The position numbers and the translations under genes were made by a program. From contig CM097885.1 in NCBI GenBank assembly GCA_044892525.1, forward strand, positions 248,001 to 312,000: DNA of 64,000 bases. Direction: 5' to 3'. Shown piece after piece: positions 12,796 to 39,112 of this stretch (position 1 is its first letter; every line of letters begins with the position of its first letter). This DNA is from Schmidtea polychroa. Its lineage: Eukaryota. The notes beneath the pieces were generated by a model, which made no database searches, had not been told where the DNA came from, and was given only the letters and a program-made list of their open reading frames with translations.

Positions 12796-15700
12796 TGTTG
12801 GCGTATGTGGGGAAAGAGAAAATATGCCCACCTGATCATCATACATCCCAAGTACTCTCTTCCGCTCCGATACTTCCCATACATACTCCAAAATGATCAA
12901 ATACATATTCCCACGTATGAGCCCGTGGTGGTGTTCCACGTTGGTGCTGCTCACACGGGTTGGAAAAGGTTAGCAGGTGAGCCCCTGCCTTAGGACTACT
13001 CCTAACCCTTTCTCGGTTCGGGTTCCATGGTGCCATAGAAGGTCTTACCCGTTTCTTCGCTCCTAATTCAGTCCAACCCTGGTCCAAAGGGACGACATTT
13101 GCGCTCGTACTATGTCTCCAGGAGCACCTTTTACTCAAATCAACCACAGCAAATCACACATACCATGAAAAAAAAAATCAAAGACTTCAAACAGTTGTAT
13201 TAAAGCGAAACATAAAAATACATTCACCATTAATTAAATAAGAACAAAACATCAAAGGTCATGTACAGGATAACGTCAACTTCTCCGAGTTCCTTCATAC
13301 CGCACAAAGATTGAGACAAATGAGAAAAAGGAATTCATTACGAAAACACTTCTCCTTCTGCGATCATTTCGTCAATGTCGACGGGCAACCGGCGATCTTC
13401 GAGGAATTTGATGCCGTCGGCCGGAACTACCCGAAATACTTCTTTCGTAGGGATAGAATGGGTGATTGTAATTTCCTTGATCGTCGATTTGGCTGCAGAT
13501 AACGATGCCTCGAGCGCGGCCATGGCGTTTCTGCGCTTCTGATTTTTCTCTGAGCGCGTCGGTCTCTTACGCTTTCGAGGTGGAAGAGTGGCTCCTGCTG
13601 GAGGCCGCGTGAGTGGCGACGCGAGGACTGGAGCCAAGATAGGGTCCGATGGACCGCCAGCCATAGGCCGATAGCCAGAAAGAACTGGGGCGGGAATTGG
13701 TGGCAATTGTAGGCCGTGTCCCTTGCAACTGATGGTTGATGAGGTTTCAGTGGATTGATGGTGTTCCGGGAACACGTTAGTCCCATCTTGTATTGGGTAT
13801 TCGCGAACTCGCTTCGCTATCTCGGATTCCGAATATACTTTGTGCAGTGCCTCTGATTGGGCTTTTATGGTTAGCCTCTGGCATCTGCTCTCCTCCAGGA
13901 GACTGTCACGGCAGTGCTCCAAACGTAGAATTTTTCTCTTCTCTTCCTTCATTTGTGGCGGGGAGAACCACGTGCCTTCGTAAAGGTCGATTCTTTTCTT
14001 TAAAGCCCCGATGTATAGATGAAGCTGCGCGATATCTGCGTTTTTATCTGCGCAGGAGAAACATGGGCGAAGAGTTTTCTCAGCAGTTGTAGGAGTAGTC
14101 ATCTAAAGAATGAGAAGTCCTTTATTTACATCATTAAAATCCTTTCTACTATTTGTTTTCTTTTTATCGTGAGCTTTATCCTGCCACATGTGCATACAAT
14201 CAGGATTGTCCCCCACATCCATACCTTTGACATCACTTAACTCATCCAAACCGTAAACCTTCAAATCAACTCATCATATCGTTCGTAAGGAAGAAAAAAA
14301 AATGAGAACCATCACACGTTATTTCTCTACCCATATTGATATTGTACCTAGGTTCCTGGGTCGACAGTTATCATCTAATCGCAATCAGTTACTCCTTACC
14401 ACTAATATATTTTTTCACTTTTATTTATTATGACCCATTGAAGGTGTGTCTACTCCCTTGCTATTATGGCTTATTGAGTTATGCCTGCTTTAATTTAGAA
14501 GAAGTAGTTCCATGCTGTTGATGCATTTTTGCGCTGTGTTAGGTTAAAACGAATGTGTTAAAAATTATTGTAAGTATTAATTTCCCCCATAAATTATAAT
14601 TTAATTATTTAAATTTTCGCATTTTATGTTGTCATAACGACGCATATTAGTATGTAGTTGTGTACTGGTTTCAGACTCTACCTGATGTGCGCTAATGTGT
14701 ATTATTTAGTTTTACTCAATTATCGCTGTCCTCTCTTAGCAAATTCTAGACATTGTGTCGGTTAGTGTACTTGATCTCGTCGCTTATTTATGCATGCCTA
14801 CGGACACATGCTACTATGACGCAATGATGATGTCGACTCACTCACGTCCCATGTATTAGTGGATTTATCTGTGTGTGGGTTTGGGTCTGCTTATCTCAGT
14901 TATAACATTATTAGCAGATGGGCTAGACGAACGGAAGATAAGGAGTCAGACTTATAGAAATAACGATTGTTATGATTTCAAGATGGCCTAAATCTGTTAT
15001 CGGGTAGCAAATGGATTTAATTTCTATCTCTCTCGTGAATGTTGACTATTCTCAAAAACCTAATCGTTTCATCGACTTGGCGCAAATCGTTCCACAATCG
15101 AACCGCTGGAATATTTTATCTACGCTACTTGCCTCTCTGCAATAGTCGTTTCTCGATCAGATGGAAAATTTATTGATAATTTGTTCGGAATGGTCGATGA
15201 AAATTTCCTTTAGGACTGTAGTAAGTGCTTATGATTAATTAGAACTTTGCTGTTTACTTTCCTGTCAGGACGAATCCTTATCGATGACAGTAGCTAATCG
15301 AAGGTTGATAACTAAGTCTCCTACTCGTCCAATAACATATCACCGCGACGGGTTGAATCGCTAACGTTCTCTTAATTTATCAATTCTTGGAAATATAGAA
15401 TGCTCCAGATTTTTTATCATTCATCAAGAAAACGAAAATGGACGTTAGAATTATCAGTGAGGTTCGAGAATTTCATTACCCTCAAGGATAGTCGGTGTTC
15501 ATATTCTGACGAAAAGAAGTCACCTAGCTCTAAATTGAATATGGCCGAACTCAAACTCGGATTAAATATCGAGAAATGTCGTCAATCTCCTAGAATTTTC
15601 AGTCAGCACGTTGTCGGCATCGAAACAGTATCGCTCAGAAGTTTCCTCAATCGAAAGTTTGCGACGGCTAATTCTCCAGATAGCACTCGATGAAAGGATC

Positions 15701-17040
15701 ATTGACTCGATTCGTTTTCTCTCACAGGGTTTCCTCACCCCTCACAACCCACCCAAGGACAGTACGCATTTCTGCCCACTGCCCTTGGACCGTCGTGAAG
15801 GACAACTCGACCCGACTTATCTCAAATCCTTCTCCAATAAATGTGCAATTAATAAATTCATATATGATCAAACAAATATGGGAATAATGAAATTAAAAGA
15901 AAAATCAAATAAATAAATGTTTACCTGGTGGCCACGCCAGCCGGATTCTGGGTATGATGACTCTTGCTAACGTAGGTTTTTACATTCATTTAGCAATCAT
16001 TGTAATACTAATATCCATGTAGATACTTGGCTGGTTCGGTCAGTGCAATTTCTGAGTATTCATATTCATAAGCTCTCTCTGAAAATGCATACGTAATTTA
16101 GCCGCATCATACCCGAGCTCCAGAGGACGTCGTCGCCAGCATCATAGAGAGAAAGCAACATCTTTTGGTTTTAAATATAAATTTTATTGAAAAATAAAAC
16201 GTCTTTTGATATTAAATTCATAATAAACATTAAAAATATCATACTAAAATTCAAAACATAATTTACCAAAATTCTCCGAAGGTGTTGAGATTGAAATCAA
16301 AGTCTTGTAAATTTTTCCTTAACGTTTTATTCTTCTCAACTGGATTCGATCTCGACTATTATCTGCCTCTAAGTAATATCTGTTATGTCCAAGTATGAAT
16401 ATTGTTCGTAAGTCTGTGCTCGTGAGTGGTTCCTAGCTTAGTCCTGTAGAGTTTCGGGTTAGAATGATAATTTTAAATAAATTTTACCTGTAGAGTTTCG
16501 GGTTAGAATGATACTCTACAGAGTTTTGTTGCTCTTTATATATATTTTTCCGTCCAATCAGGACACACCTTGCTTGTAATTTTGTTATTTATTATTATTT
16601 TATGTTTTTTCTTATCGTAGTATATTATATTTTAATGACCCTACCTATTTCTATTATTGTTTTATTTATTTTCCTATTTTTTATTATTTTTCTCCTATTT
16701 TTCTGTGGTTTTATTGCTATTTTATTTGTAACTTCATTTTTTGTTTTAATTAACCTTATGGATGATTTTATTTTTATTTTGTTTTCCTTTAGTTTTCGTT
16801 TGTTTTTCTTAAATTTTGTGCCATTTTATTTCTCTTTTACTGTTGTGCTCATTGGGTGCCTTCCCTTTTGTCTTATTTCCCCTTTACAGGTTTTGTTATT
16901 TTATTTAGTTATTCTTGTTTCTTTATGGATGTTTAATTTGTTTCTTCCTATGTTTCTCGTAATTTTTATATGTTTTTATTTTATTTACTCTATCTCTTCC
17001 TGGGTTCGTTTTTCCAACACCTTCAGAGCTTGGCCCAACA
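12796..17040 (-). repeat. 3' LTR (4245 bp)
   Basis: Direct repeat of 39113-42807; begins TGTTGG, ends CCAACA. Confidence 0.97.
13338..14102 (-). CDS. 254 aa protein encoded inside the LTR (CxxC, coiled coil, Pro-rich, basic NLS-like PPRKRKRP)
   Basis: ATG directly preceded by the acceptor-like TTCTTTAG; intact only in this LTR copy. Confidence 0.6.
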   Translation of the reverse strand: MTTPTTAEKTLRPCFSCADKNADIAQLHLYIGALKKRIDLYEGTWFSPPQMKEEKRKILRLEHCRDSLLEESRCQRLTIKAQSEALHKVYSESEIAKRVREYPIQDGTNVFPEHHQSTETSSTISCKGHGLQLPPIPAPVLSGYRPMAGGPSDPILAPVLASPLTRPPAGATLPPRKRKRPTRSEKNQKRRNAMAALEASLSAAKSTIKEITITHSIPTKEVFRVVPADGIKFLEDRRLPVDIDEMIAEGEVFS

Positions 17041-17295
17041 AATCACTCCGGGGGCCGTTAAAATTGCGTCCCGCAATTCACACAATATCATACATTTAGA
17101 TCATATCTTCTTTCGGTATAACCCATAATCTCACAATCAAAATCCACACAAACATAAAATCAAATTAACAAAAAAATACTTTAATTAAACAGAGAAAATG
17201 ACAAATATAAGCAAGCAGTGGCCACTTAAGGTGACCGGTTTCATCAGAAGATAATAAAACAGCAAAAATTTTGTCAATAGTTACAGTTCGAAATG

Positions 17296-17955
17296 TTATG
17301 TTTGTTGTTCGGTTGCCGTTGATGATGGATGATTTGGTTGTTGGGTTTCGATGTTGTAGTATATTCGGCGACTTGTGGACGGTCTGACTGTTTCTGCGAT
17401 GGAGGTTCGTTGTCGGAGATTTTCTTGGATTACGTCAGCCATATTAGCTTCTTGGGATCTTCGAGACGATCTTTCCGGTACGGGGTGACTTTTCTTCCAA
17501 ACTTGGTAGATATTATGGATTTTTAGGAGGATGATTACCATGATTACGGTGGTTTCGACGATTACCACGTAGAGGAGTTCATGGTGGTCATTTATTTCTT
17601 TGGCGATTTCTACTGGTTCGACTGGGTTTTGTATTTCTTGATGTTGGACCTGCTGTTCTAGCTGATCGAGTTGGTGAATTTGGTCCAGGATTCTTTTATC
17701 AATGATTTTGCACATGGGGTGGTTATTATAGATTAATCTGATATTGTTGACGTACGTTCGGGTAACTCGAATGTTGTCGGTAAGACGGGTTTTTATGATA
17801 CTTGGATAGAGGCATGATTTGGCTGTTGGTTCGGTCTTTTGGTGGGATTTTCTGCTGTCTCGAATATGTTCAATTTCGGGCTTTACGGGTTGTCGCCTTG
17901 TCAGATCAAGGATTATTGTCATCATCAGAATTATTATGATTGGTTTGTTTTTCAT
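17296..17955 (-). CDS. Accessory ORF: predicted type I membrane protein
   Basis: N-terminal hydrophobic run (PIIIILMMTIILDL), second hydrophobic run (LLYVVIVETTVIMVIILL), acceptor ATATCAG just before the ATG at 17955. Confidence 0.7.
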   Translation of the reverse strand: MKNKPIIIILMMTIILDLTRRQPVKPEIEHIRDSRKSHQKTEPTAKSCLYPSIIKTRLTDNIRVTRTYVNNIRLIYNNHPMCKIIDKRILDQIHQLDQLEQQVQHQEIQNPVEPVEIAKEINDHHELLYVVIVETTVIMVIILLKIHNIYQVWKKSHPVPERSSRRSQEANMADVIQENLRQRTSIAETVRPSTSRRIYYNIETQQPNHPSSTATEQQT

Positions 17956-18014
17956 ACTACTGATATACATTTAGTAATTTTACACACATTTATATACATC
18001 GCTTTTTGTCGGTT

Positions 18015-18722
18015 TTAATTTTGTCGTTTCTTTTTAGGGTTTTTCTCCCGGATTCGCATTAATTTAGACTCCGCTTTAATGACTCTATGTCGGAGTTCCG
18101 GCAACATTTCTAGTTGCCTCTCTTTCTCCTGGACCTTGTCTGTCAAGTGTCTTATCTCTCTTTTCAAGGTTTTTATCTCCTTCTTCTTTTCTTTCAGGTT
18201 CCGTTCCAGTTCCAATTGTAGGAAATCATTTTCCTCTGGGTCGTTTGTCTTTGAGTTTTGTTTCTGCCGTTTTGTTTCTATTTCTCGATATTTACTATTC
18301 CATTTCTCCATTTCTGTACTTTCTTGTACTTTTACTTCCAGCTGGTTTTCCAACTCCTTGATGGTTTCTTGTCGTTTCCTTGCTTCCGTTTTCCAATAAT
18401 CTTCGATTACTTCGTTTTCCTTGAAACTGGCTCTCTCCTGCCATAATTCTTCCGCGATCTTTTCCCAATTTCTCCCTCGCTTTCTTTGTTCGTGAAGCCA
18501 TTCGTTTTCTACTTCTACTTCTTTCTTTATTTCCTCCAATGTTTTGCATTCCCTTTTTAGCACCTTTATCATTCTTCGATCATCCATATATTTGTCTATC
18601 ATCCTTTCTTTTTCCTGTTTCTCCTCTATCAACTCGTCCTTCGGCGTTTTCATTTTTATGGGGTCTGTTTCAATTTCTCCCTCTTCTAGCTCGGTCATGG
18701 TGGATATTTCTTCTATTTTCAT
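18015..18722 (-). CDS. Accessory ORF: coiled-coil protein
   Basis: E/K/R-rich heptads; likely start MKIEEIS after the acceptor TTGTAG. Confidence 0.75.
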   Translation of the reverse strand: MKIEEISTMTELEEGEIETDPIKMKTPKDELIEEKQEKERMIDKYMDDRRMIKVLKRECKTLEEIKKEVEVENEWLHEQRKRGRNWEKIAEELWQERASFKENEVIEDYWKTEARKRQETIKELENQLEVKVQESTEMEKWNSKYREIETKRQKQNSKTNDPEENDFLQLELERNLKEKKKEIKTLKREIRHLTDKVQEKERQLEMLPELRHRVIKAESKLMRIREKNPKKKRQN

Positions 18723-18883
18723 GTCTACAATATTTACAATTAATAGTGCGCTACAGTGCGGCTTATACTTATACATTTATAGGTAATTTTATATAATCAG
18801 GGTAAATATTTTTATCGTACTAATAATTTTTTGTTGGGATACAGGTCCCGATTTTTTATATATTTTATCTTTTCCATTTATCT

Positions 18884-19921
18884 TTATGCAAAGGTTTCTT
18901 CCTGGCCTACGTATCCCTCATCGCTTTCTACTGACGTTTGTAGTTGGAGTGCGATGGGATCGAATGGGATGTAGTACCGGGGAATCTGCGCTCTAAGCTC
19001 CTGAACTTCGTCTCTTAGCGCTCTTGACACGTTGAGTTCCTCGTCCAACAGGTATGTTAGATACCTGGTTTCGTCGTCCCTTACCTCGATCTGTTTTTCT
19101 AACTCCTCCGCCTTTTCGCCGTTCTCCCATTTTTTGATCTCCTTTTCGAGGTTCTTGATATTTTCGTCATACATCTTTCTCTCGTTTTCCAATTTCTTGT
19201 TCTTACCGGCTAGCACTATATTCCTTTGTTCTAGTGCCCCCTTATAGCCGTTATTGTCTCTTTCAAGATCTGCCACCTTGTTTACGAGTTCGACGATTCT
19301 ACCTGACTGTTGTAGGATCATCTCTTCCATGGCGGTATTCTCCTGTTCCTTTATAGACAGTTTCATGGCCAGATGCCTTTCAAATTCCATGGCCTTGGTC
19401 TGCCAGGTTTGACTTCTAGCTGCTACTTTCCGGAGCCTTCTTAGCTCTTCTTTCTGATCCAGGTTTTCTTCCCATTTCCCTTGATTACTCTCGTGTTCCA
19501 ATCTCTGCGGTAATTCTCTCATCTCTTTTTGGATTTCTCGATGTTGTTTTTTCCACTTTCTGGCTTCTGCTAGTAGTTGGCGGGTCTTTCTTTCCTCCTT
19601 TTGTTTTTCTATTTCCCGCTTCTTATTCTCATCCGTTAGTCTTTTTCTTGACTCTTGTACCAGCTGCTTCAGGTAATGCCCGTGTGCCTCTTGCCTGGTA
19701 TTTTCTAATGCCGACCATTTGGCGGCTCTTTTGCAGGCCTCGGCCTCCGCCCGTAAATTCTGTACTAACCACTGGAACTGGTGGTTTTCCCACTCTCTTG
19801 CCTCCTCGAGGTAATTTCGTGTTTGATTTGATAATTGTGCCATCACTTTGGCCCATCTTTCTCTATGTATTCTACTGATGTTTATTTCGTTATTTGGGGC
19901 TTCCGTTTGATCTTGAGTCAT
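18884..19921 (-). CDS. Accessory ORF: 345 aa coiled-coil protein
   Basis: Long uninterrupted ORF, heptad pattern, acceptor TATTTAG 6 nt before the ATG. Confidence 0.8.
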   Translation of the reverse strand: MTQDQTEAPNNEINISRIHRERWAKVMAQLSNQTRNYLEEAREWENHQFQWLVQNLRAEAEACKRAAKWSALENTRQEAHGHYLKQLVQESRKRLTDENKKREIEKQKEERKTRQLLAEARKWKKQHREIQKEMRELPQRLEHESNQGKWEENLDQKEELRRLRKVAARSQTWQTKAMEFERHLAMKLSIKEQENTAMEEMILQQSGRIVELVNKVADLERDNNGYKGALEQRNIVLAGKNKKLENERKMYDENIKNLEKEIKKWENGEKAEELEKQIEVRDDETRYLTYLLDEELNVSRALRDEVQELRAQIPRYYIPFDPIALQLQTSVESDEGYVGQEETFA

Positions 19922-20139
19922 CTTTGTCTAAATAACGATATCATTAACTCAACGTTGTACGCTTATATCTGGTTTATTATTTATTTATTTTTACAATTCG
20001 TTATAGGAGTTGTTTTAGAAGTTTTACGCTTAAGTTTACTTTTAGTAGATTTGGGGGATTTTTCTACACTACTATATAATGTTTTACGGGGTATATATGC
20101 CGATATTTACAATTAGTATATACAAAATTATTCGTCTCT

Positions 20140-21528
20140 CTACTCAGTCCTACTCTTCCCGTCTCGCCTCACCGCTATTTTTATGTATATAGTGTCGTTT
20201 CTCGTCATGTCTTCTACTTTCCGCTGTAGGATGAAATTCGGTGCTCCAGTTGCTGGTCCTTCTTCTTCCAAGGGCCTTTGGTAACATACGAGGTTTCCCG
20301 CTGTATGGAAACTCTGTTCATGTATACTTTGATAGTTCATCATTGCGAGGTCTATTTTTGCTTTGAATGGCCATTCTATTAACTCGTCGTATAGCCCTTT
20401 GCACATCAAGAAAAATACTGAGAAATGCGTTCCGTATGCACTTCCATCCCCATTGGGGTATGCTTTCATTTTCATTTTATACCCGTTTTTCCATGAGTAG
20501 AATGCTGGACTTAGTAATGTTGTATCCTTTCCATTTCTCGCTCTCTGCATCTTCTCTTTTACTCCCGTTATTTTCCATATGTATGGCGCCGTTGGTATTA
20601 ATTCGTTGAGGTTTAATTCGCTTACTCTTTGATGTAGTTCTTTCACCATAATGTTGCTAGTTTCCACTAGGTCTGTCTGTATCTTTGTACTTGTTCTCGC
20701 CTCCTCAAATGCTTCCTTTTCTTCCAATAACTCTTTTACCAACGCTTTTAGCGAGACCATTTCTTTCTCTAAGTTTTCGGTTTTCCTTTCGTTTTCTTGT
20801 AATACCGTTGACCATATTTCCGCGTGTGTTGATACGTTTTCTGCTAGATGTTGGGGTAATTCTCCTCGGTGTAATTGTTTCTGACATCCCCATTTTCCTA
20901 GCACACACGTTATCTTTTTCCTTTCACATTCTCTGAGATGTTGAGCGAGTCTTATTACTCCAGATTTATCGCATTTATTGGGACATTCTCCTCTGAACCC
21001 TGCGCACACTTTCTCCTCTTGTATGTTGTGATGTTGACTGATTAATTTTTTCCAGGTGTCGGTTTCTCCGCAATACTCACATTTCTCCAGTCTTTCTTCG
21101 CATCGACTTTGATGTTCTGCTTCTTCATTGACTTTAATCTCTTCTTGGCAACGTTTGCATTGACTGATTTTATATTCACATTGCTCCATATGTTGCCTCA
21201 CTTCCCATATCCCTCCTCGCCAATTGCATGGGGTGTTTTTACATCCTAAATTTGAATTTAACATATCTTTCACGGCTGCTTTATCTTCGTTTGTATCTCC
21301 CAAACTTGTTATCATGGTTTCTTTACATACTGGGCACCATTGTGGTCCCTTCTTTATTATCTCCTCTACACATTCTCTGCACATTCTGCATCCACATCTG
21401 GTTTGGTGAGGTTCTCTTAATAAGCTCTTGCATATTCCACACGTTACATGGTTGTGTATTCGAATTGTGGTGGACTTTCTGACTTGTTCAACAATTTCTT
21501 TGAATTCTTCTCGTTGTCGCTTATCCAT
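20140..21528 (-). CDS. TRAF: TNF receptor-associated factor (TRAF)-like E3 ligase/adaptor, intronless
   Basis: RING (CGIC..LLREPHQTRCGCRMCRECV..CPVC), several TRAF zinc fingers, coiled coil, MATH domain (YIWKI..LLSPAFYS..GYKM..YPNGDG..GTHFSVF..GLYD..WPF..NDTIYIK). Confidence 0.95.
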   Translation of the reverse strand: MDKRQREEFKEIVEQVRKSTTIRIHNHVTCGICKSLLREPHQTRCGCRMCRECVEEIIKKGPQWCPVCKETMITSLGDTNEDKAAVKDMLNSNLGCKNTPCNWRGGIWEVRQHMEQCEYKISQCKRCQEEIKVNEEAEHQSRCEERLEKCEYCGETDTWKKLISQHHNIQEEKVCAGFRGECPNKCDKSGVIRLAQHLRECERKKITCVLGKWGCQKQLHRGELPQHLAENVSTHAEIWSTVLQENERKTENLEKEMVSLKALVKELLEEKEAFEEARTSTKIQTDLVETSNIMVKELHQRVSELNLNELIPTAPYIWKITGVKEKMQRARNGKDTTLLSPAFYSWKNGYKMKMKAYPNGDGSAYGTHFSVFFLMCKGLYDELIEWPFKAKIDLAMMNYQSIHEQSFHTAGNLVCYQRPLEEEGPATGAPNFILQRKVEDMTRNDTIYIKIAVRRDGKSRTE

Positions 21529-29945: not shown

Positions 29946-32900
29946 CTCGTTTGCGCATTTCCCTGGTGGTATTGTGGGTTTTCTTGGCAGTCGCGCAAAC
30001 GTCTTGGTACATACATTACCTCTCCCACCATTCTACCAAAATGTCCATCCGGTAACGGGAGTGATGGCATTGTGTTATCTGGGTGTGTTATTGCGATGGC
30101 TAATTTTGTTTTTAGTATCTCTTTATTCAATGAACAGTCATTTTGTATAAGATCGTAGTATACTTTTTGCATTGTCGTTTGTCCTCGATGAAATAAAAAG
30201 TCCATTTTGTTGTTGGCATAAAGGTACAACTTCACGTCCTCCGTTGATACTTTTCCTACTGCTCGGTCTATTACTTGCCTTGACATGTAGATACCTGCGT
30301 AGTTCGTCCGATATACTATGCTGTCACATTCGGTGGTCTCTTTTTCTCTGATGAATCTCATACCGATATCTGGATCATCTGTAATTAATGCCGTTGGTGT
30401 TTTTTGTGTTGTGAGTCTCTTTTCTTTGGGGGATGGTGGAACTGGTTTCCCATTTCGCATCCTTACGTTTCCATTCTCTTCATCGTCATCCTCGTTTTCG
30501 TAAATTTCTCCTTTTACTTCATTGAATAGAGCACTTTTTAACAATTGGAGTCGGCATTTTTGGGTGTTAGCTTCATATATTATAGTCGAAATTCCCGTTC
30601 TACACACGTTTTCCGTAGCTCTGCATGCTGGGTTGGTTTTCATTTGATAGTTGTTTGCGTCGAATTGTGCTTCGTATTCCTTCAACTCCACTGTGTAGGA
30701 CTCAATTACTACTACTCCCGAGATCACTTCTCCTCTGATCGTATATGTGCCTCCGTTACATGATCCATCAGTTGATTTTACTCGTCCGGCTACATAGATA
30801 CTTTCCGTCTTGATCATTCCGCTTTGTCCGTGTATTGTTACTCCATCCCTGATTCTCATCGCTCCGGTTCTAAAAAGCTCTTTACAGTCTTCCCGTTGTA
30901 TAGGTACTATTTCTTTATCTAATCCAGGTAATATGAGAGTTGAATACGAATATTGTCCACAGTAATATGCCAACACTTTCTTCGATACTACGCATTCTCT
31001 AGCTTGCGTCCTAATGAAATCTGATTCTTGGTATACGTGATAGGAGACTTTCTTTTTTACTATATCTAATTTATTCGGAGATGCCTGTCTACATTCCTCT
31101 ATATCTCTCAGGGAGTATCTTTCTCCTATTATTGAATTGTCACAGTCGTAAATTGTAAATCCAGCTGCTCCACTGGTGCAGAGCATCCATATCATCATGG
31201 TCATCATTAGTGAATTAATCGACGCTTTTCTGCTGGCTGGGTCTTTCAATGGCAATTCCCATTCCAGTTCGTTTAGCAATTTCTTCAACCGAATTTGCAT
31301 CGATCTCTCTTGCTCGTTTTTTCGTGGCGCTTGTATGAGTCTTTTCCACCCACCGGCACGGATAATATGTGGTTCGATTGTATTTTCAATGATTGTAACG
31401 GTCATTTCTACATGATTTGCGAATTGTTTGTTAGGTATTTTCCTTGCTGCTAATCCCATCAAATTGTACATTAGATACGTTAATACTACTAAATGATGTT
31501 CGTCGTCGTTTGCGTTTAAAGTTAATTGTTCAATTACCCTTCTTGTCTCTTCCCAATCGGTTTTAGTGGTTTTTGTCTTCTCTTTGATTAATTTCGGAAT
31601 TATTCCGGATATTGTATTCCATAGCTGTCTGGCATCTACGCTTGCTACTTTTCGTTGCCATAACCGTCGCAATTGTGGGTTCGTTATTATTAGCATATCT
31701 TTTACTAGCTCTCGTATCCATTTTTCGCCTCTTTCGATTGTTGGCTGGGCCTCTTTCAGATCCCACACTATTTTATCCAGTTTCTTCAATCTGACTTGTC
31801 CTTGTTCTTGTTTCAGTTGTTCTCTGGTTTTAAATTCTGGTTTTTCTCCTTGCTTCTTGGGTCTTCCTTTTGCCCGTTTCTCCATCATTGTTCCAGCTTC
31901 TCTTGTCGTTTCATAATTCGGGTTTCTCTCGTTATCTGTTCTTGGCAATGAGCTATCGTTGTTTCTCAGCCACTCATTCCATTCGTCTATTATTTTGTCC
32001 GTTTGACCTTCTGGTGTTGCTTTCGTCGGTCCTTTTGGTCGTTGGAATTGTTCGTCGGTTTCGGTTTCTGTTGTATTATCGATAATTTCCTCTATGTTCA
32101 GCTTATTTGGTTGTTGATAGCTAGTTGACGGTTGGCTTGTTGTCCATATTTCGGCTCCTGTCGGCCATCTTACCAGAATTGGTGATCTTTCTCCAGCTCC
32201 TTCATCGCTGTCTTCTAATATGATTTCCTCGATTTCCTCGGTTTCATTCGATTTACTCGCCACTTTGTTAGGGCTTGGTGTACTCAAGCTACCTTTCGTA
32301 GTTTTGCTGGATTTGCTCTTCCTTTTAATCGGTTTTCCCAATGTTTCTGCCATTGTCAATACATTGATCTCCCCCAATCTCATGGGTGTTATTCCGACAT
32401 CTGCATTATCATCTAACGATTTTCCGAATAGTTGTAGGTGAAATGGAGTTTCGTATGCTAACTTCTTTTTTAACTCTCTGATCTTTGTTGTTGGATGTAC
32501 TTCTATATCCTCAATGCTTTTGTCGGGATACTTGACTCGGATACGATACCTTTCCTGGGTATCTTGTGCCCATTCTTGGTTTCTCCATTTCCTAATAATT
32601 TGTTCTAGCTGTTCTGGGTACCATTCGTTATATTGTCGGTATTCCTCAATCGCTTTCGCCATTTCTCTTAGATTGTGGATATTCTCTGATGTCTTTAGGA
32701 TGATGTTAGCCAATGCTACTACTTGTCGTTTTTGATTTTTTGTTCCCGTTGCTAAGATGTCACCTAATTGTTTATATCTTTCCTTCTCTTCTCGTTCTCG
32801 AGCTTCCATCGCTTCTTCGCTGTCCATATCGGCATATTCGCGTTCCTTCTTTCTCATCGCATGAATATGTCTGGTTTCCGTTTCACTTTCGGACGTGACG

Positions 32901-35900
32901 TCCGTTTCGCTTTCCTCGTCCGATACCGGTTCTTTCTCTTCCTCTTCGTATTTTGGAGGTTCGTCTTCCTCTTCTTCTGATTTACTTTCGGTCTCGCCAA
33001 TGTCTGTTTCTACGAAAATTCCTTTCCTGACTTCCCACTCTTTATTTTCCGCATTCCACATCCTTTCCCAGGGAGTTCGTCTGCAAGATCTAGTACTTAG
33101 TTTCTTTATTTTTCCTTGTAGTTCCTTTTCCTTTAACCACTGTTGATGAATTTCAATTATCTCTACTGATTTTTGGTATAGCGTTTTCATCCTGTCCCGT
33201 ATCTCTTTCTGGTAGGTTACATCTCTTGTTCGGAATTCGTCCATGGGCAATATTCTAATTATTTGATGATTATCCCACATTCCCATTTCGCTTAACGATG
33301 TGTCGTCTTCAGCCCGTAATATTATTTTATCGTACATCATGACTACATCATCTATCATCCCGTCGCTACTCTCGCTTCGTACTTTTTCCGTTATCTCTTG
33401 GTTTATCTTGGTTACTAAGTCATCCACCGTACTCTGATTACTCATCTTTATTCGTCGTTTCTCCTCGTTTGGTAACCATATGGTTATTTCTAATTTCTGC
33501 GGTTGCGTTTCTTTTAATCTTCCGTATTTGTGGATCAAATTTATGGTTCTCCAATCGCTCATCCTGAGCAATTCTGTATCTCGTAATCGGCTCATTAGTT
33601 CATGCATATCTGGAGTTCGTCTTGCTATGAGTAAATCCCAGTTATCTTCGACTTGTTCTTGAATTTGTTTGATTAGTTTATCTAGATTCCGCCTTAAAGT
33701 GCATTGTTTTATTTGTTCCAATTTCAGCTTGATATTGAAATCGTATTCAGCCTTGGCGTCTTTAGCCCATTCATGAACATTAGTTGGTTGCTTCTCTTTA
33801 TGCAACTTCAATATTTGAGTTTCTCCTGGCCAGATCAATGCATCTATTAGGTGCATGTCTGGCTTAATTTGTTCTCCTTGGTATTGATATAAATACTCTT
33901 TCTTTCTCGAGCTGCCCAAATGTTCTCTTATCCAATCGAAAAGATCGTCTGTAACTGTATTTTTTATCCATATTCTCTCGAGTCCTTTACTCGTTCCGAT
34001 TTTATTACGTATTTTTTCCATATACTTCTTTATTATCGCTTTCTCCTCGCTTGGTATTAAATCTTTTTCGTTTCTTTCCAGTTTCATTATCTTTTGTATG
34101 AAGCGTCTGTATGGTATGATGTCAATGAAATCCTGGTTTCTTACCACCACTGGAAGTATTTCTTTTACTTGTTTTATCGCCTCTTCTTTTTCCTTTCTCA
34201 GTTTCATCTCGATATTCTCATCTTCACTTTCGCTTGCCACATCGCTTTCACTTTTCTCCTCATCTTCTCCGATCTTTTTCTTTAGTTGTTCGATATTTTC
34301 ATTTAACTGCAATATTTCTCCACCCAGGCTACTCACATTATCCTCATCGTCATCTGTTGACAATACCTTCTTTGTCGTCCTCATCATATTAATTCGTAAA
34401 TTCCTCATCCTTGGTACTTTCTTTAGCTTCTGGTTCTCGAATATCGTTAGCTCCTCTGAGTCTAATTCTTGTATCATATTATGATTTAGATGATTAATCT
34501 GCTTCTCATTTTCGTTATTTTCCGCTTCTACTCCGGTTTTGATTTTCTCGTGTTCCTTTTCGATTTTATCTTTTATCTTTTTCCAGAATATTTTCTGAAT
34601 TCTCTGATTCCCTTTTAATGGTGTTGTTGGGTTTTCCTTTTTCGCTTCTGTAATCGTTTCTTTCGGTGTCTCTGGTTCGATCAATGGGACTACTCTTGGA
34701 TTTTTCCCGTAATTGTAACAATATTGCTCTTTTATCTCCTTTACCATCCTCATCATATTTATTCGTAATGGTTGTTCTTGTCGCTGCTGAATTCGCTCTC
34801 TTTTTATTCTCTCTTCCTCAGCTTGTAGTCTCTGCCATTCTTGTGCATGTTGTTGTACTTCATAATTGTTAAGATTCTCGGTGCTCCTCATCAGGCGTAT
34901 ATTCTGAGTTTGTTGTGGTACTGGTTCTTGTCTTGGCCTCATCATTTGTTGCATCATTTGTTTCATTTGAGAAATTTCTTGCATCACATTCATTTGTTTT
35001 CCCTCACTGGGGTTACTTTGTCGTTGCGGATTTGGTGCATAATTATTGTTTCGTTGTGGTGGTCGTTGTTGTTGGCCCCTTTCTCGGCAATCTCTTGAGA
35101 TGTGACCTGGCTGACCGCAGTTAAAGCATCCTCTCAACTGGCATATATTTTCCGTGTGTCCTCGTCGTCCGCATCTATTACAATTTGCGTTTCGGTAACA
35201 ATCTCTGTACCAATGTCCTGGTTTACCGCATGTTCGGCATTGTTTGTTATCGTTCGTATTTCGTCGATTATTAAAATTATTTCCATTGTTCGAGTTGTTG
35301 CGTTCGCTGTTATTCCCGTTTGATCGTCCTTGCGGTGGTTTGAAAATTTGATGCGCACCTGGTATAAACTGATTCATCTTCGGTTCATGATTATTGTTAT
35401 CTCCATTTTCTGTTTTCGCCGTAGCTGCTGCGATTCTTCCCTCCTCTTGCATGACATTCATTTGTGCCGGGAGGTGTAGTTCGCATCTTGTGGCCCAATC
35501 TATGGCCTCCTCTAGTGTTTTACACATCTGACATCCCACCGAGGCTCTTACCTCTTCCCGGCGTAGTCCTTCTATGAAATAACCAATTAGGTTCTCTTCC
35601 GGCAAGTTTCCGTTCATGGCCTTCGTTGCCAATCTTCGCAATTCGCTTGCGTATAACGTTATTGATTCATTGGCTCTTTGTTTTCTACTCGCTAATTCTC
35701 CTAGGGCTTGATTTATTGGTTTGCTGGCCCCGAATGTTTTTCTCAAAAATGTTTTGATGTTTTCCCAATTGTCTAATTTCGTATTTCTTTCTTTTGCTTC
35801 TAGATACACTTCGAGTGCGCTATCGCACAAAAACAGAGGCATTCGTTTACTAATTGCTTCCGCTGTCCATCCGCACACATCGATATAGACTTCAAAATTT

Positions 35901-35992
35901 GTTATGAACGTTGCCAACTTGTTCGCATTCCCGTTAAACGGTTCGCCTCTAAATTTTTCTTTATACTCGTCGGTTTTTACCACATTCATCAT
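29888..35992 (-). CDS. gag: Polyprotein part 1: Gag (capsid, 3 CCHC knuckles) - ubiquitin-like domains - Bcl-2-like domain - envelope glycoprotein ectodomain
   Basis: Retrotransposon capsid motifs (PFNG..F..F..GW..L..SA..W..F..RKQ..ESI..Y..FIEGL) and three CX2CX4HX4C at 35087-35239. The frame stays open without an ATG up to ~36415. Env-like part starts after the hydrophobic MMTMMIWMLCTSGAAG at 31207. Confidence 0.9.
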   Translation of the reverse strand: MMNVVKTDEYKEKFRGEPFNGNANKLATFITNFEVYIDVCGWTAEAISKRMPLFLCDSALEVYLEAKERNTKLDNWENIKTFLRKTFGASKPINQALGELASRKQRANESITLYASELRRLATKAMNGNLPEENLIGYFIEGLRREEVRASVGCQMCKTLEEAIDWATRCELHLPAQMNVMQEEGRIAAATAKTENGDNNNHEPKMNQFIPGAHQIFKPPQGRSNGNNSERNNSNNGNNFNNRRNTNDNKQCRTCGKPGHWYRDCYRNANCNRCGRRGHTENICQLRGCFNCGQPGHISRDCRERGQQQRPPQRNNNYAPNPQRQSNPSEGKQMNVMQEISQMKQMMQQMMRPRQEPVPQQTQNIRLMRSTENLNNYEVQQHAQEWQRLQAEEERIKRERIQQRQEQPLRINMMRMVKEIKEQYCYNYGKNPRVVPLIEPETPKETITEAKKENPTTPLKGNQRIQKIFWKKIKDKIEKEHEKIKTGVEAENNENEKQINHLNHNMIQELDSEELTIFENQKLKKVPRMRNLRINMMRTTKKVLSTDDDEDNVSSLGGEILQLNENIEQLKKKIGEDEEKSESDVASESEDENIEMKLRKEKEEAIKQVKEILPVVVRNQDFIDIIPYRRFIQKIMKLERNEKDLIPSEEKAIIKKYMEKIRNKIGTSKGLERIWIKNTVTDDLFDWIREHLGSSRKKEYLYQYQGEQIKPDMHLIDALIWPGETQILKLHKEKQPTNVHEWAKDAKAEYDFNIKLKLEQIKQCTLRRNLDKLIKQIQEQVEDNWDLLIARRTPDMHELMSRLRDTELLRMSDWRTINLIHKYGRLKETQPQKLEITIWLPNEEKRRIKMSNQSTVDDLVTKINQEITEKVRSESSDGMIDDVVMMYDKIILRAEDDTSLSEMGMWDNHQIIRILPMDEFRTRDVTYQKEIRDRMKTLYQKSVEIIEIHQQWLKEKELQGKIKKLSTRSCRRTPWERMWNAENKEWEVRKGIFVETDIGETESKSEEEEDEPPKYEEEEKEPVSDEESETDVTSESETETRHIHAMRKKEREYADMDSEEAMEAREREEKERYKQLGDILATGTKNQKRQVVALANIILKTSENIHNLREMAKAIEEYRQYNEWYPEQLEQIIRKWRNQEWAQDTQERYRIRVKYPDKSIEDIEVHPTTKIRELKKKLAYETPFHLQLFGKSLDDNADVGITPMRLGEINVLTMAETLGKPIKRKSKSSKTTKGSLSTPSPNKVASKSNETEEIEEIILEDSDEGAGERSPILVRWPTGAEIWTTSQPSTSYQQPNKLNIEEIIDNTTETETDEQFQRPKGPTKATPEGQTDKIIDEWNEWLRNNDSSLPRTDNERNPNYETTREAGTMMEKRAKGRPKKQGEKPEFKTREQLKQEQGQVRLKKLDKIVWDLKEAQPTIERGEKWIRELVKDMLIITNPQLRRLWQRKVASVDARQLWNTISGIIPKLIKEKTKTTKTDWEETRRVIEQLTLNANDDEHHLVVLTYLMYNLMGLAARKIPNKQFANHVEMTVTIIENTIEPHIIRAGGWKRLIQAPRKNEQERSMQIRLKKLLNELEWELPLKDPASRKASINSLMMTMMIWMLCTSGAAGFTIYDCDNSIIGERYSLRDIEECRQASPNKLDIVKKKVSYHVYQESDFIRTQARECVVSKKVLAYYCGQYSYSTLILPGLDKEIVPIQREDCKELFRTGAMRIRDGVTIHGQSGMIKTESIYVAGRVKSTDGSCNGGTYTIRGEVISGVVVIESYTVELKEYEAQFDANNYQMKTNPACRATENVCRTGISTIIYEANTQKCRLQLLKSALFNEVKGEIYENEDDDEENGNVRMRNGKPVPPSPKEKRLTTQKTPTALITDDPDIGMRFIREKETTECDSIVYRTNYAGIYMSRQVIDRAVGKVSTEDVKLYLYANNKMDFLFHRGQTTMQKVYYDLIQNDCSLNKEILKTKLAIAITHPDNTMPSLPLPDGHFGRMVGEVMYVPRRLRDCQENPQYHQGNAQTSWKLVTKGKTDSFNPSLEL

Positions 35993-37270
35993 GACTGGTT
36001 CTTGTAACTCTATTGTTTCTTTTAAATTTTCCAGCGGTGTCGCTAAATTATGGACGGATAATTCTTCTGTTGACCCGGTTAGGTTGTTTGATATATCGGA
36101 TAGGCTTTCTCTGCTTCTAGATCGACTAGGGGTGTATCCGAGGTTTTCTTGGTCAAATGTTGGTACTTGATTTGTTCTTTTTGCTCCTTGTGATCTTCCT
36201 CTTTGCTGTTTTATGGATCGTCCTCTTCTGAGCTGTTCTAGTTCGTCTCCTGAAATTAATACGTCTCTCGACTTACTTGAGGATCTGAGATTCAGTTTCT
36301 CCGTGGTTCCTTTATACGCCTCTCTATCGTCTCTTAAGGGTTTCTCGGCAATTATCGGCTGCTGACTTGAGCGAATTCGGTTTTGTCGGTGTTCCGAGTC
36401 CTTGGCAATTGGTTGTTAGCGTTATGAGACGTCTTCCGTTCTTGGAATCTTCGGGTTGTGTTACTCCTACTGAGCGGGTTCTGGATTGGTTATTTCTAGT
36501 TGGTCGTTGATTTCTTCGAATTCCTTTGTGCAGGTTCTGGATTGGCTTGATTGACTGGATTGGTTTGGTATCTAAAATGAAAAAATGATCTCGTGTTGCA
36601 TCTGCTCACACGACTTCATCATTCTTTCTTCAACATTCAAACACAGACACCGTTTAGGGCCTCTGTTATACTTCTCCTTATTTCCCCATACAATTTCTCG
36701 TGGATTATAGTCACCCATCAACCCATAGTTTTCGTCGATTTTAAATTATCTATTTAGGGTAGTAATAATTATCTATATGGTCGTATGAATCATCTATAAT
36801 TATCATTTATAATATCGATAGGTCGTTGTCAGTTACTGCTTATCACCCCCCATATTCTCTTAATCCTTTTACGCGGTTCCGCTATTTTACTTAATCTTTC
36901 GTCTCTGTTCCCCTTCACTCGGTTCTACTCTGAACCAAAAAAAAAAAAAAAATCGGATTCGTTTATCCGGTTTAAACCAAAATTCTGTAGACTTTTGTCT
37001 ACTTACTTGGGATCCCCTTTAATTAATTAATTACCTTCCTTTTTACTCGTCATTTATTCCCACTTATTCTCTACTTTTACTATCTCTTCAATTCATTTTC
37101 CTTTTCTGATTCTCCTTTTCTACTAAAAGGGTTTTACTTTCATCTTCTACGAGCTCGTTTAATCCTTTCTAAATTCGACTTCTCGTATCCCAATTCAATT
37201 TGTTTCTAGCTAGCTTAATATTCTATCTCATTATCAACTTAAATATTATCCAATCATTTTCTAGGCCTTT

Positions 37271-37625
37271 ACGACTGGCTGGCACTTTTCAACAGCTCAA
37301 TCTTCTTCCTTCTGACCGGTTGGACTATTCGACAACTCGATCTTACGACTGGCTGGCACTATTCAACAGCTCAATCTTCTTCCTTCTGACCGGTTGGACT
37401 ATTCGACAACTCGATCTTACGACTGGCTGGCACTATTCAACAGCTCAATCTTCTTCCTCTCCAAACTGGCTGGACTTTTCACAGCTCAGTTTTTAATTTT
37501 TTTTCCTGACCGGCTGGACTTCTCGACAGCTCGGCCTTAATATCTCCCGACTGGCTGGACTTTTCACAGCTCAGTTTCAATTTCCCTGGCCGGCGGGACT
37601 ATTCAACAGCTCGGCCTTAATATCT
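37271..37625. repeat. Tandem repeat in the 5' leader (74-bp unit built from ~35-39 bp subunits)
   Basis: ACGACTGGCTGGCAC.. recurs at 37271, 37345 and 37419; degenerate (C/T)GGCTGGAC..TTC.ACAGCTC subunits continue to ~37625. Confidence 0.9.
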
Positions 37626-38198: not shown

Positions 38199-38678
38199 TT
38201 AACTGAAGTAAATCGTGTGCTTCTCCTTTATTGCACATACACATAAAGAACAATGCGTTAAACTGACGGCGCATTCGTCGCAATGGCTAAGGTGTCCACA
38301 AGGTAGCATTAGAATTCTGGCAGGTCGCGTCTTACAAATGTTACAAGTTCTCAAGGCCGCTGCTTTTTCTATTATCGAGGTTCGTATTCTCTGAGATAGA
38401 GTTTTTACTTGTTCGCGTATTTTCACATATTCGAGGTTCAGAGCGGGGTCGTCGAGTCGTTGCTGCATCCATTGGTAATGGACAGACAAGTCGGTGTCGG
38501 TATTTGTTGACCCCAATCTGTCGGTTAGAAAGTTTTGTTTGGATATCAGCGGTGCGTTGTGGCGTTGTTGCTCTAGGGTTTCTATTTGTTGCAGTTTTTC
38601 TCTTAACGTCTTTATGGAATCGTTTTCTATGTCGACGAACCGGCTTAGTCGTTGTAGATGTTTCCTAGCTTCTGACAT
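38199..38678 (-). CDS. Coiled-coil + C-terminal IAP-type RING finger protein, upstream of gag
   Basis: CNIC..ARILMLPCGHLSHCDECAVSLTHCSLC..IKEKHTIYFS* matches the C-terminal RING layout and aromatic tail of IAP-like ligases; no BIR domain; acceptor TTTTTTAG 2 nt before the ATG. Confidence 0.85.
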   Translation of the reverse strand: MSEARKHLQRLSRFVDIENDSIKTLREKLQQIETLEQQRHNAPLISKQNFLTDRLGSTNTDTDLSVHYQWMQQRLDDPALNLEYVKIREQVKTLSQRIRTSIIEKAAALRTCNICKTRPARILMLPCGHLSHCDECAVSLTHCSLCVCAIKEKHTIYFS

Positions 38679-39087
38679 ATCTAAAAAAGTATGTTGTCAT
38701 TACTCGGTCTCACTTATAAAAATAAAAATAATATTATCGTGTTATAATCAATGTTCGTTTGGCTTTGTTCGCTATTGTTTCTAGTTTATGTATTTTATTC
38801 AATCTCTAATAATTCTTTTTTAATTTAATTCATTTAAAATTAAACAAAATTAGTCAATTCCCATTTTCTCTTCTCTTCATATTCAATCACATTCATTCAA
38901 ACTTATTTAGGTTCGTTTTTGTTCATAGCATGTTCTATTTTACGCAAAGACAGTTCGCATCATCATCTTAATACACTATAATATCAATTCATTTCAGTCC
39001 CGATTCCCTTTTTTATTATAATTAATTAAATTGTTAGTCTAACACATCGTAATACAGTAATAGGCAATCAAACAATTCGAAATCACA

Positions 39088-39105: not shown

Positions 39106-39112
39106 AAAATCA

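Follow-up and report, generated by a model that had tools for sequence, protein, structure and literature searches.

Burro elements (GYPSM1), as described in the available sections of Arkhipova and Yushenova 2019 (PMC6431247), are more than 30 kb long and have multi-kb LTRs, a CCHC Gag and an env lying in frame between gag and pol. They also carry ankyrin, TRAF-MATH and RING/IAP-type domains together with accessory ORFs, and occur in thousands of copies (PMC6431247), features in which the element analysed here resembles them. Sections of PMC8532177 report that BURRO1 is expressed and PIWI-controlled. Those available from the Burro description are silent on the expression of the accessory ORFs, on acceptor-like starts, on a gene-end motif and on the gag leader (PMC6431247). 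Acceptor-like starts, the gene-end motif and an ATG-free gag leader were likewise not found in the literature searched, which did not extend to Grohme et al. 2018.

Partial parallels come from other systems. Cer1, a Ty3/gypsy element of C. elegans, is also an LTR retroelement in a host with spliced-leader (SL) trans-splicing; sections of PMC3315495 describe a subgenomic 2.4-kb mRNA carrying SL1 at a defined acceptor and a full-length gag-pol RNA that skips the splice sites. As described there, Cer1 differs in having a single SL site that yields a single spliced product, with neither an accessory array nor gene-end signals, whereas in the Burro element the gag mRNA itself looks spliced. The SL operons of flatworms and nematodes, most of which comprise two genes in flatworms, are similar in that same-strand cistrons lie 300 nt or less apart, a threshold taken from sections of PMC12582326, and in that the 3'-end signal of the upstream gene is near the next acceptor and the acceptor near the AUG (PMC12582326; host relics), both being putative in the Burro element. 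In contrast to these operons, the present arrangement lies inside a mobile provirus, after a 14-kb polyprotein gene, and would need read-through for genomic RNA. SL-bearing retrotransposon transcripts of Schistosoma mansoni were an incidental observation for which the authors left an assembly artefact possible, and no gene-by-gene punctuation was described for them, unlike in the Burro element. In complex retroviruses and gypsy-type elements with a spliced env, acceptors lie just before the AUG, a single major cis donor gives rise to 3'-coterminal mRNAs, and the unspliced RNA serves both for gag expression and as the genome. We know of none among these elements in which every gene is followed by an internal poly(A)-type signal.

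The window, which is the whole 64,000-nt stretch of Schmidtea polychroa DNA analysed, contains on its minus strand a full-length Burro-type giant Ty3/gypsy LTR retroelement of 30,012 bp, a young member of a known family. The original prediction was right about gag (Retrotrans_gag by Pfam) and about the LTRs, which are flanked by a target duplication; its likeness to a complex retrovirus gives way to this known type. Features are listed below from high to low coordinates, a slash marking each candidate junction.

42808..42811, minus strand: target-site duplication GGAC, with its second copy at 12792-12795
39113..42807, minus strand: 5' LTR, 3,695 bp, TGTTGG start and CCAACA end
39088..39112, minus strand: primer-binding-site-like stretch right after the 5' LTR
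38199..38682, minus strand: RING ORF and acceptor-like site, acttttttag/at ATG (38678), AG 38682-38681 and 2 nt before an ORF of 159 aa with a C-terminal RING (IAP-type)
37269..37625, minus strand: leader tandem repeats in 74-nt units, donor-like GTC/GTAAGA in every unit
35995..36586, minus strand: gag-leader site, acceptor-like attttttcattttag/ (AG 36573-36572; ttttttcattttag/atacc at 36572), then the gag leader
29888..35992, minus strand: ORF1, 2,034 aa, with Gag (Retrotrans_gag, CCHC knuckles), a long segment of unknown nature and the N-terminal portion of env, a Monjiviricetes-type fusion glycoprotein
22146..29891, minus strand: ORF2, 2,581 aa, with the remainder of env and its membrane anchor, protease, RT, RNase H, integrase and two ankyrin-repeat blocks
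21618..21980, minus strand: 119-aa ORF and site, aaattaag/a ATG (21977), AG 21980-21979, 1 nt
20140..21532, minus strand: TRAF-like ORF, 462 aa (RING + MATH), and site, aattatag/aa ATG (21528), AG 21532-21531, 2 nt
18884..19929, minus strand: 345-aa coiled-coil ORF and site, gttatttag/acaaag ATG (19921), AG 19929-19928, 6 nt
18015..18726, minus strand: coiled-coil ORF and site, atattgtag/ac ATG (18722), AG 18726-18725, 2 nt; 253 aa from 18776
17296..17961, minus strand: ~219-aa ORF with a hydrophobic N-terminus, and site, tatatcag/tag/t ATG (17955), AG 17961-17960 and 17958-17957
12796..17040, minus strand: 3' LTR, 4,245 bp, TGTTGG and CCAACA ends, holding the intact LTR ORF
14103..14130, minus strand: LTR-ORF site, gene-end-like TGTAAATAAA from 14130, then cttctcattctttag/ with AG 14104-14103 directly before ATG 14102
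14102..13338, minus strand: LTR ORF, 254 aa, intact in the 3' LTR

Pfam domains follow the gypsy order (Retrotrans_gag, zf-CCHC, RVP, RVT_1, RT_RNaseH, Integrase_H2C2, rve), and MATH, RING and Ank domains were also matched. Monjiviricetes_fusion is matched by the last part of ORF1 and the first part of ORF2, which places an env-like glycoprotein between gag and pol. In this copy the two ORFs are separated by a frame break within env; a single frame of 4,724-4,817 aa runs across that break in 55 of 150 other copies (hand count). Within the polyprotein, no acceptor-like site of the kind described here precedes the env signal peptide. Five of the accessory genes follow one another after pol, a RING gene lies between the LTR and gag, and a further gene is contained in the LTR. 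Because the 5' LTR lacks 551 nt present in the 3' LTR, the LTR ORF is truncated in it; the signals of this ORF are repeated there (gene-end-like at 39897; AG 39871-39870). The accessory ORFs are real genes, since their dN/dS is low (0.03-0.17, with dS of 0.17-0.82, in 15 pairwise comparisons) and the TRAF ORF is free of internal stops in 84 of the 92 copies scored.

The original prediction had placed a splice acceptor a few bases before nearly every accessory ATG. All eight of its AG motifs were located on the minus strand where it had put them, behind the AT-rich spacers that it had reported (59-218 nt between genes here, 76-154 nt in a second Burro family). An AG lies 0-6 nt before the ATG at 7 of 7 accessory starts here and at 7 of 8 first ATGs in the second family, or 8 of 8 if the second ATG of one gene is used. 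The motifs are thus present; worded for a bare AG, the claim goes only weakly beyond chance, with P about 0.001 for all eight sites, as 42% of the element's sense-strand ATGs (282 of 671) and ~47% of the spacer ATGs that do not begin an ORF (33 of 70) have a bare AG at this distance. A stricter TAG criterion, set after the sites of the window had been seen, separates starts from background more sharply. Here 6 of 8 starts have a TAG 0-6 nt before the ATG; in the second family, which served as the out-of-sample set, 6 of 11 do, and this alone gives P = 1.4e-3. The combined 12 of 19 real starts compare with 21 of 178 decoy ORF starts (Fisher P = 1.6e-6), and background ATGs in the second-family copy score 69 of 777. 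When 819 YAG sites were ranked by how pyrimidine-rich their preceding 12 nt are, the LTR-ORF site came first, the gag-leader site fell within the first four distinct sites and the RING site was one of the best 25 listed. Pyrimidine tracts are poor at four of the eight sites, and the site at 21977 is AAG rather than YAG.

Chance alone would explain the motifs if AT-rich spacers, rich in TAG and TAA, had supplied them and fitting ATGs had been picked. Besides the high frequency of bare AGs, this account can point to two of the eight ATGs, which had been preferred over an earlier in-frame ATG: the first ATGs of the mechanical ORFs are at 18776 and 17970, and 18722 and 17955 were used instead, a choice that comparison of subfamilies supports. 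The decoy-ORF and background controls, the out-of-sample family, the conservation and the ATG-free leader in both families all speak against it, and we consider it very improbable. The AG was retained in 171 of 172 cells of a comparison of four starts in 43 copies. Across copies, the 345-aa start has TAG in 27 and CAG in 16, while the 253-aa and 224-aa starts each have three spacer variants, all with a YAG 1-4 nt before the ATG, one of these variants having an upstream ATG out of frame. Outside the 20 nt of the primer-binding-site-like stretch (39107-39088) that are identical in both families, little else upstream can be compared: the LTR and leader of the second family are alignable only at the primer-binding site and three small patches. 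Its accessory proteins are nonetheless collinear orthologs at 27-33% identity, and their starts read TTTTGTAG/AA, TTAATTAG/, AAATAG/GA, ATTGTAG/A, TTATTATAG/, TTATTTAG/ACA, TTTTTGTAG/AT (second ATG) and TGTAAAG/. The two families share descent, and the recurrence between them is in part inherited, not independent.

Judged by the TAG/CAG swaps, the recurrence at orthologous starts and the ATG-free gag leader, the AG motifs behave like selected signals at exact gene starts. This much of the splice-acceptor interpretation is supported, while splicing of RNA at the motifs is its predicted part. The motifs may also be functional without being splice sites, either as part of a compact promoter or initiator belonging to each gene or as a UAG/A-AUG translation context. 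TATA-like TATATAA or TATAAAT lies 10-30 nt before several ATGs, and whole spacers diverge by 0.035-0.18, well under the dS of 0.39-0.82, as promoters would; gene-end signals are also compatible with independent transcription units. Yet transcription starting at or after the motifs leaves a leader of 0-6 nt or falls within the ORF, as little as about 40 nt separates the last gene-end motif from the ATG, and what is conserved is specifically YAG with Y-to-Y swaps. A role in translation context is further at odds with the gag-leader site, 579 nt from the gag ATG, and we consider non-splicing functions improbable as a whole. Given how ribosomes scan, a leader of 0-6 nt would hardly suffice if transcription began there, yet it is usual behind a spliced 5' exon, which makes such an exon the more natural reading.

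The region before gag offers a second line of evidence. The 606 nt from 36598 to 35993 form the longest ATG-free stretch of the element and reach the gag ATG; only 4 of 10,000 shuffles of this sequence were free of ATG. In the second family the corresponding stretch measures 523 nt, and a strong TTTTAG/A sits 27 nt (here) and 24 nt (second family) into it. Upstream lie the RING ORF and many ATGs. The gag-env-pol mRNA would start at this candidate junction, 579 nt upstream of its gag ATG, and splicing there would remove the RING gene with its many AUGs.

Gene ends carry a signal of their own. UGUAHAUA occurs within 45 nt after stops six times against 0.10 expected here and seven times against 0.14 expected in the second family, all first copies lying 14-20 nt past the stop; in the window flanks it is found once per 4,854 nt. 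Of the stops tested, 4 of 7 here and 5 of 8 in the second family have the motif at its fixed position. It is often extended to AAUAAA and often doubled, the second copy appearing as UGUAAAUAAA. Examples lie 14 nt after the pol stop (22132), before the 119-aa ORF; 20 and 30 nt after the stop preceding the TRAF-like ORF (21598, 21588); and 16 and 29 nt after the TRAF stop (20124, 20111), while UGUAUAUA lies 17 nt after the stop preceding the ~219-aa ORF (17998). We infer that UGUAHAUA/AAUAAA may act as 3'-end or mRNA-control signals. UGUAHAUA is also the Pumilio-type binding motif and need not mean 3'-end formation. Under either splicing reading, cis or trans, it offers a clean, testable signal, as a poly(A) site or as Pumilio-type control.

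The host uses SL trans-splicing (sections of PMC12582326 and PMC10899757). With the SL exon end taken from the supplement of PMC10899757, 121 genomic places were found where it is joined to non-gene sequence, against none for the control. An ATG follows the junction by 0-6 nt in 24 of 60 such relics versus 9 of 60 at control offsets, and this AG-to-ATG distance matches the 0-6 nt geometry of the element. The planarian SL ends in AUG, which would be an out-of-frame upstream AUG at 9 of 15 Burro sites; in host relics it is likewise out of frame in 11 of 24. No genomic relic with the SL joined to a predicted Burro exon start was found among 88 exact SL-end matches and 60 flanks (overlapping sets), and no splice joint at these AGs was seen in the contigs examined, which may derive from RNA or from DNA. 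None of the sequencing runs recorded as RNA contained the stretch.

On the favoured reading, each accessory gene and gag would have its own mRNA, made through 3' splice sites and gene-end signals and most likely by SL trans-splicing, a reading that we put at slightly under even odds (about 0.45). The (U-rich) UAG/A sites 0-6 nt before each downstream gene would be genuine 3' splice sites. Processing would then turn a single long precursor into separate mRNAs, each capped and tailed and each serving one gene, with unspliced RNA kept as the genome. The 5' exon would most likely come from the host SL, in operon-like trans-splicing. Splicing and polyadenylation at these sites, with the SL as 5' exon, are inferences from sequence; what is observed is the motifs with their statistics and conservation, selection acting on the genes and the SL geometry of the host. 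For the 26-kb genomic RNA the internal gene-end signals would need to be bypassed, a point against this reading. Other points against it are the poor pyrimidine tracts at four sites and the AAG at 21977, the out-of-frame AUG that the SL would often bring, the negative search for SL-Burro relics, the missing site before env, the shared descent of the two families and the TAG criterion set after the fact.

The other mechanism originally put forward was retrovirus-style cis-splicing, in which a single 5' donor, situated in the LTR or leader, joins alternative acceptors to give nested mRNAs ending in the 3' LTR. The acceptor evidence applies to it equally. Flatworm acceptors often serve both cis- and trans-splicing (sections of PMC12582326), and Cer1 has a cis-spliced 2.4-kb mRNA (sections of PMC3315495). 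Donor-like CAA/GTAAGT is present at 37006 and 36276, and, besides the GTC/GTAAGA of each 74-nt leader repeat here, the leader repeats of the second family hold donor-like GTT/GTGAGA. Against this, none of the donors keeps its position from one family to the other, the alignable leader being so limited, and a gag leader free of ATG from the acceptor on demands that the 5' exon be short and ATG-free. Gene-end signals after genes are, moreover, needless for 3'-coterminal mRNAs. Together with the AG-to-ATG distance resembling that of host SL junctions, the absence of a conserved donor and the needless gene-end signals favour SL trans-splicing, which appears to fit better; we regard cis-splicing as unlikely.

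These signals bear on the way in which a 30-kb retroelement such as Burro can express at least six genes in addition to gag-pol. Burro elements account for a considerable part of planarian genomes and show activity in somatic tissues. More tentatively still, the element may run its own multi-gene operon on the SL and poly(A) machinery of the host, punctuated by UGUAHAUA 14-20 nt after the stop and UAG/A 0-6 nt before the AUG. A transcript of ~26 kb would be resolved into six to eight mRNAs, that of gag-env-pol being trans-spliced, the unprocessed RNA would serve as genome, and the punctuation would let host-derived genes (TRAF, IAP/RING) enter or swap as cassettes. The motif coordinates are exact enough for a direct test in existing planarian RNA-seq. 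Should the sites turn out to be cis acceptors, Burro would represent a counterpart of complex retroviruses among invertebrates. If the punctuation works as proposed, the element would be the first example of a retroelement built as an SL-resolved operon, and the continued uptake of host-derived apoptosis and ubiquitin genes as cassettes would be explained.

The accessory genes examined here belong to a minus-strand element of 30,012 bp, whose LTRs start with TGTTGG, finish with CCAACA and are flanked on both sides by a 4-bp GGAC duplication. The two LTRs are 99.6-99.8% identical outside one 551-nt gap, and a TGG-containing primer-binding-like site lies directly after the upstream LTR. Between the LTRs, ORFs of 2,034 and 2,581 aa encode a Gag with CCHC knuckles and a Monjiviricetes-type fusion glycoprotein, together with protease, RT, RNase H, integrase and ankyrin repeats. 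Giant gypsy-like planarian retroelements named Burro, with an in-frame env placed between gag and pol, were described by Arkhipova & Yushenova (available text of PMC6431247); because its anatomy, including the in-frame env, matches that description as far as the available text goes, the window element is a Burro-type element and as such already known.

Features of the window element (window coordinates or ORF length)
42807-39113, minus strand: upstream LTR, 3.7-kb direct repeat
17040-12796, minus strand: downstream LTR, 4.2-kb direct repeat
159 aa: RING ORF, between LTR and gag
119 aa; 462 aa (TRAF-like, RING+MATH); 345 aa; 253 aa; 224 aa: five ORFs after pol
254 aa: ORF inside the LTR

The 551-nt stretch (13518-14068) is confined to the 3' LTR (vs 39835 in the 5' LTR), and since it is missing from the 5' LTR, the 254-aa ORF is cut and frame-shifted there. 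The short LTR form was seen in one contig of sequencing run X2; an intron was rejected as the source of the difference, its ends not being GT..AG. Many copies of the element occur in the host genome (781 Mb, four very large contigs). The gag-env-pol frame of the window copy is broken within env at 29888-30040, with the first ORF stopping at 29888 and the second frame open over 2,628 aa, while a single frame of 4,724-4,817 aa runs across this site in 55 of 150 other copies (hand count); the window copy thus combines near-identical LTRs with a split polyprotein. Relatives ranking highest for the TRAF-like ORF in the protein database were 24-29% identical proteins from ENA assemblies, with no planarian entry among them. 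The host genome (G000) contains a dense cluster of MATH-domain exons with open frames of 179-206 aa (G000:C2:114.7-121.5 Mb) and, elsewhere, several single-frame TRAF-like genes of 454-473 aa; these are possible host relatives or sources of the element's TRAF-like gene. Outside the element, 43367-44324 holds 31/42-nt repeat arrays (units CAAGGTCAT...ATGACTCAT) and a long array of 9-nt period.

The original prediction held that nearly every accessory ORF has a splice acceptor a few bases before its ATG. All the motifs it listed, including one upstream of gag (36572), were located where it had placed them. As worded, the claim is weak, since a bare AG a few bases before an ATG is common, occurring at 282/671 sense-strand ATGs of the element and at 33/70 spacer ATGs that start no ORF. 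The TAG form is not weak: TAG lying 0-6 nt ahead of the ATG was found at 6 of 8 window sites, as against 69/777 background ATGs (in a copy of a second Burro family) and 21/178 decoy ORFs, which were taken from other reading frames and the opposite strand and begin at the first ATG to follow a stop. When 819 sense-strand YAG sites are ranked by the pyrimidine content of the preceding 12 nt, that of the LTR ORF comes first and the one ahead of gag falls within the top four distinct sites. Pyrimidine tracts are poor at four sites (119-aa, TRAF-like, 253-aa and 224-aa ORFs), one of them an AAG, and no acceptor-like site was found before the env signal peptide. The gene starts resemble 3' splice sites such as occur in AT-rich genomes, and we infer splicing there.

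Conservation was assessed by aligning 42 other copies, 87-99% identical to the window over the accessory region. Purifying selection on the accessory ORFs is strong (dN/dS 0.03-0.17, dS up to 0.82, 15 pairwise comparisons), and the TRAF-like ORF has no internal stop in 84/92 copies. Spacer divergence (0.035-0.18) is far below that of synonymous sites, hence the spacers are constrained as a whole. Across four starts in 43 copies, the AG was kept in 171 of 172 cases. The 345-aa start reads TAG in 27 copies and CAG in 16, and the 253-aa start exists in three versions (TGTAG/AA, TATAG/AAA and TACAG/AA, the slash standing after the AG); because an upstream ATG (window 18776) is out of frame in the second of these, this ORF starts at the ATG behind the AG. 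At the 224-aa ORF, an AG lies 1-4 nt before the ATG in 14/14 covering copies although the upstream sequence is a replaced cassette, and most of them lack the earlier ATG of the window (17970). The family has cassette variants elsewhere too: contigs of runs X3 and X4 swap the 119-aa ORF block for 36 other letters (21556-22122), and several subfamilies carry another version of the entire 224-aa ORF together with the 253-aa ORF end (17245-18351).

The second Burro family was found by a MATH-domain search, its MATH domain lying within a 4,791-aa frame, and one copy was read in overlapping pieces. Its LTR and leader align to the window only at 20 nt of the primer-binding site and three short patches. 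Its accessory proteins are collinear orthologs of those in the window, with 27-33% identity (second family/window: RING; 152/119 aa; TRAF-like 475/462 aa; 533/345 aa; 262/253 aa). The family carries an additional BIR-RING gene, and its last position is taken by a membrane protein.

Starts of second-family genes (slash after the acceptor-like AG)
LTR ORF: TTTTGTAG/AA ATG
RING: TTAATTAG/ATG
152 aa: AAATAG/GA ATG
TRAF-like, 475 aa: ATTGTAG/A ATG
BIR-RING, 393 aa: TTATTATAG/ATG
533 aa: TTATTTAG/ACA ATG
262 aa, at its second ATG: TTTTTGTAG/AT ATG
329 aa: TGTAAAG/ATG

Counting first ATGs only, TAG occurs within 6 nt at 6/11 of its starts (binomial P = 1.5e-4 against the background of the same copy; Fisher P = 1.4e-3 against decoys). 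When both families are pooled, the TAG form is present at 12/19 starts (P = 1.6e-6 vs decoys). Chance is a most improbable explanation of the motifs. A third Burro family has env in a 3,334-aa frame, and one 3.5-kb piece of it, taken at a wrongly guessed place, contained no sense-strand ORF of at least 50 aa and showed no resemblance to the accessory proteins.

Gene ends carry a motif of their own. UGUAHAUA occurs 14-20 nt after the stops of pol and of the majority of accessory genes, where a second copy, reading UGUAAAUAAA, is frequent at 29-30 nt; the motif also stands 17 nt ahead of the LTR-ORF acceptor (motif positions 22132, 21598, 21588, 20124, 20111, 17998, 14130 and 39897). Within 45 nt of stops, there were 6 motifs for 7 stops in the window (0.10 expected) and 7 for 8 stops in the second family (0.14 expected); in the window flanks the frequency is once per 4,854 nt. 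At the second-family 533-aa ORF (locus L056, G000:C1:203546513-203546560), the motif runs into about 36 A, either an expanded A-run or a poly(A)-tail trace of mRNA-mediated cassette gain. Read as UGUA plus AAUAAA, the motif is a putative 3'-end signal; it is identical to the Pumilio-type binding motif, the two being indistinguishable here, and it could serve mRNA control instead of, or besides, polyadenylation. For the motifs at gene starts, another function, or transcription of the ORFs from their own promoters, is improbable; a gap of 0-6 nt between AG and AUG suits a 5' exon added by splicing, not a transcription start. Taken together, the evidence shows selected signals placed precisely where genes start and end.

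The gag leader displays a related pattern. In the window element, no ATG-free stretch is longer than the 606 nt that run from 27 nt ahead of ATTTTTTCATTTTAG/A (36572) up to the gag ATG; from composition, about 7.5 ATGs would be expected, and 4 of 10,000 shuffles lacked ATG. The second family has a 523-nt ATG-free stretch before gag, starting 24 nt before TTAATTATTTTAG/A, so that in both families the ATG-free zone opens at a strong acceptor-like site. Just upstream of this site lies ATG-rich sequence with the RING gene. Such a pattern would be expected if the gag mRNA opened with a short 5' exon of foreign origin, attached at this site. A 60-nt patch, 80% identical between families (36738-36797 vs G000:C1:203526600-203526656), is found about 165 nt upstream of the site in both, the leaders being otherwise unalignable. 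Tandem repeats also lie between the RING gene and gag in both families (37269-37625; second-family locus L053, ~203525500-203525850), and each unit has a donor-like GT(A/G)AGA, which may be a U1-binding site or a real donor.

Retroviruses, and some LTR elements, routinely make spliced subgenomic mRNAs. Cis-splicing from a leader donor to the acceptors ranks second among the explanations, as a possible but rather unlikely one. A donor-like AAAAA/GTAAGT, located 33 nt beyond the pol stop, is retained by 42/43 copies of the window's family and absent from the second family. Of the two mechanisms offered by the original prediction, the better reading of these sequences is trans-splicing of a polycistronic precursor with the host spliced leader (SL), to which we give a probability of about 0.45. 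It is favoured because a putative gene-end signal follows pol and most accessory genes, because no donor is conserved in position between families, and because the 5' exon must be ATG-free. The precursor would receive the SL at each gene start, the upstream gene would be closed by its gene-end signal before the next trans-splice site, and the gag mRNA would begin with a short foreign 5' exon at the gag-leader acceptor. Internal gene-end signals would be bypassed to make genomic RNA, a necessity that is awkward for SL trans-splicing.

SL trans-splicing is established in Schmidtea (available text of PMC12582326 and PMC10899757), and the SL gene, with an exon ending in ...TTATATG before GTA, is printed in the supplement of PMC10899757. 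A whole-genome search for this exon end with any base but G next to it returned 121 places, as against 0 for the reversed sequence. In the flanks (loci L058-L117), the full SL is joined to diverse sequences, which argues for relics of reverse-transcribed trans-spliced mRNAs; the places are either such retro-copies or repeats with the SL as 5' end. Several form multi-copy families, for instance those continuing TCGAGTATATCAGA, AAATGCATAATTAA, CAAAAATGGAACGT and ATGTTTGAAAGAGA. An ATG lies 0-6 nt after the junction in 24/60 relics (12/35 families) vs 9/60 at control offsets. The AG-to-ATG distances of the element sites (0, 0, 0, 0, 1, 1, 2 six times, 3, 4 and 6) thus have the host's usual trans-splice geometry. 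The terminal AUG of the SL would be out of frame at 9/15 sites, which is awkward for SL use, and is likewise out of frame in 11/24 host relics. No relic continued into a predicted Burro exon among 20 with 100 nt of flank, 40 with 24 nt, or 88 exact matches to the SL end (wildcard pattern, overlapping the 60 flank-read relics), which is weak negative evidence against SL use. Three positional near-matches among the 40 were rejected as belonging to other relic families. Contigs from four runs of unknown kind covered 12700-32699, thus the acceptors of the LTR ORF and of the ORFs after pol but not site 38680, site 36571 or the 5' leader; among the 15 joints listed none was a minus-strand GT..AG or lay at a claimed acceptor, and none of the 24 loose ends listed lay at an acceptor, a result uninformative either way.

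In retroelements of other animals, a 2.4-kb mRNA of Cer1 of C. elegans bears SL1 (available text of PMC3315495), and a schistosome study suggested that retrotransposons might bear the SL (available text of PMC5832876). Neither a retroelement gene array with fixed gene-end and gene-start punctuation nor a spliced gag leader in Burro was found in the literature searched, which included the available text of PMC6431247 but not Grohme et al. 2018, a paper that may bear on both. Read from sequence, the punctuated array and the putative spliced gag leader are of interest to both the retroelement and the flatworm gene-expression fields.
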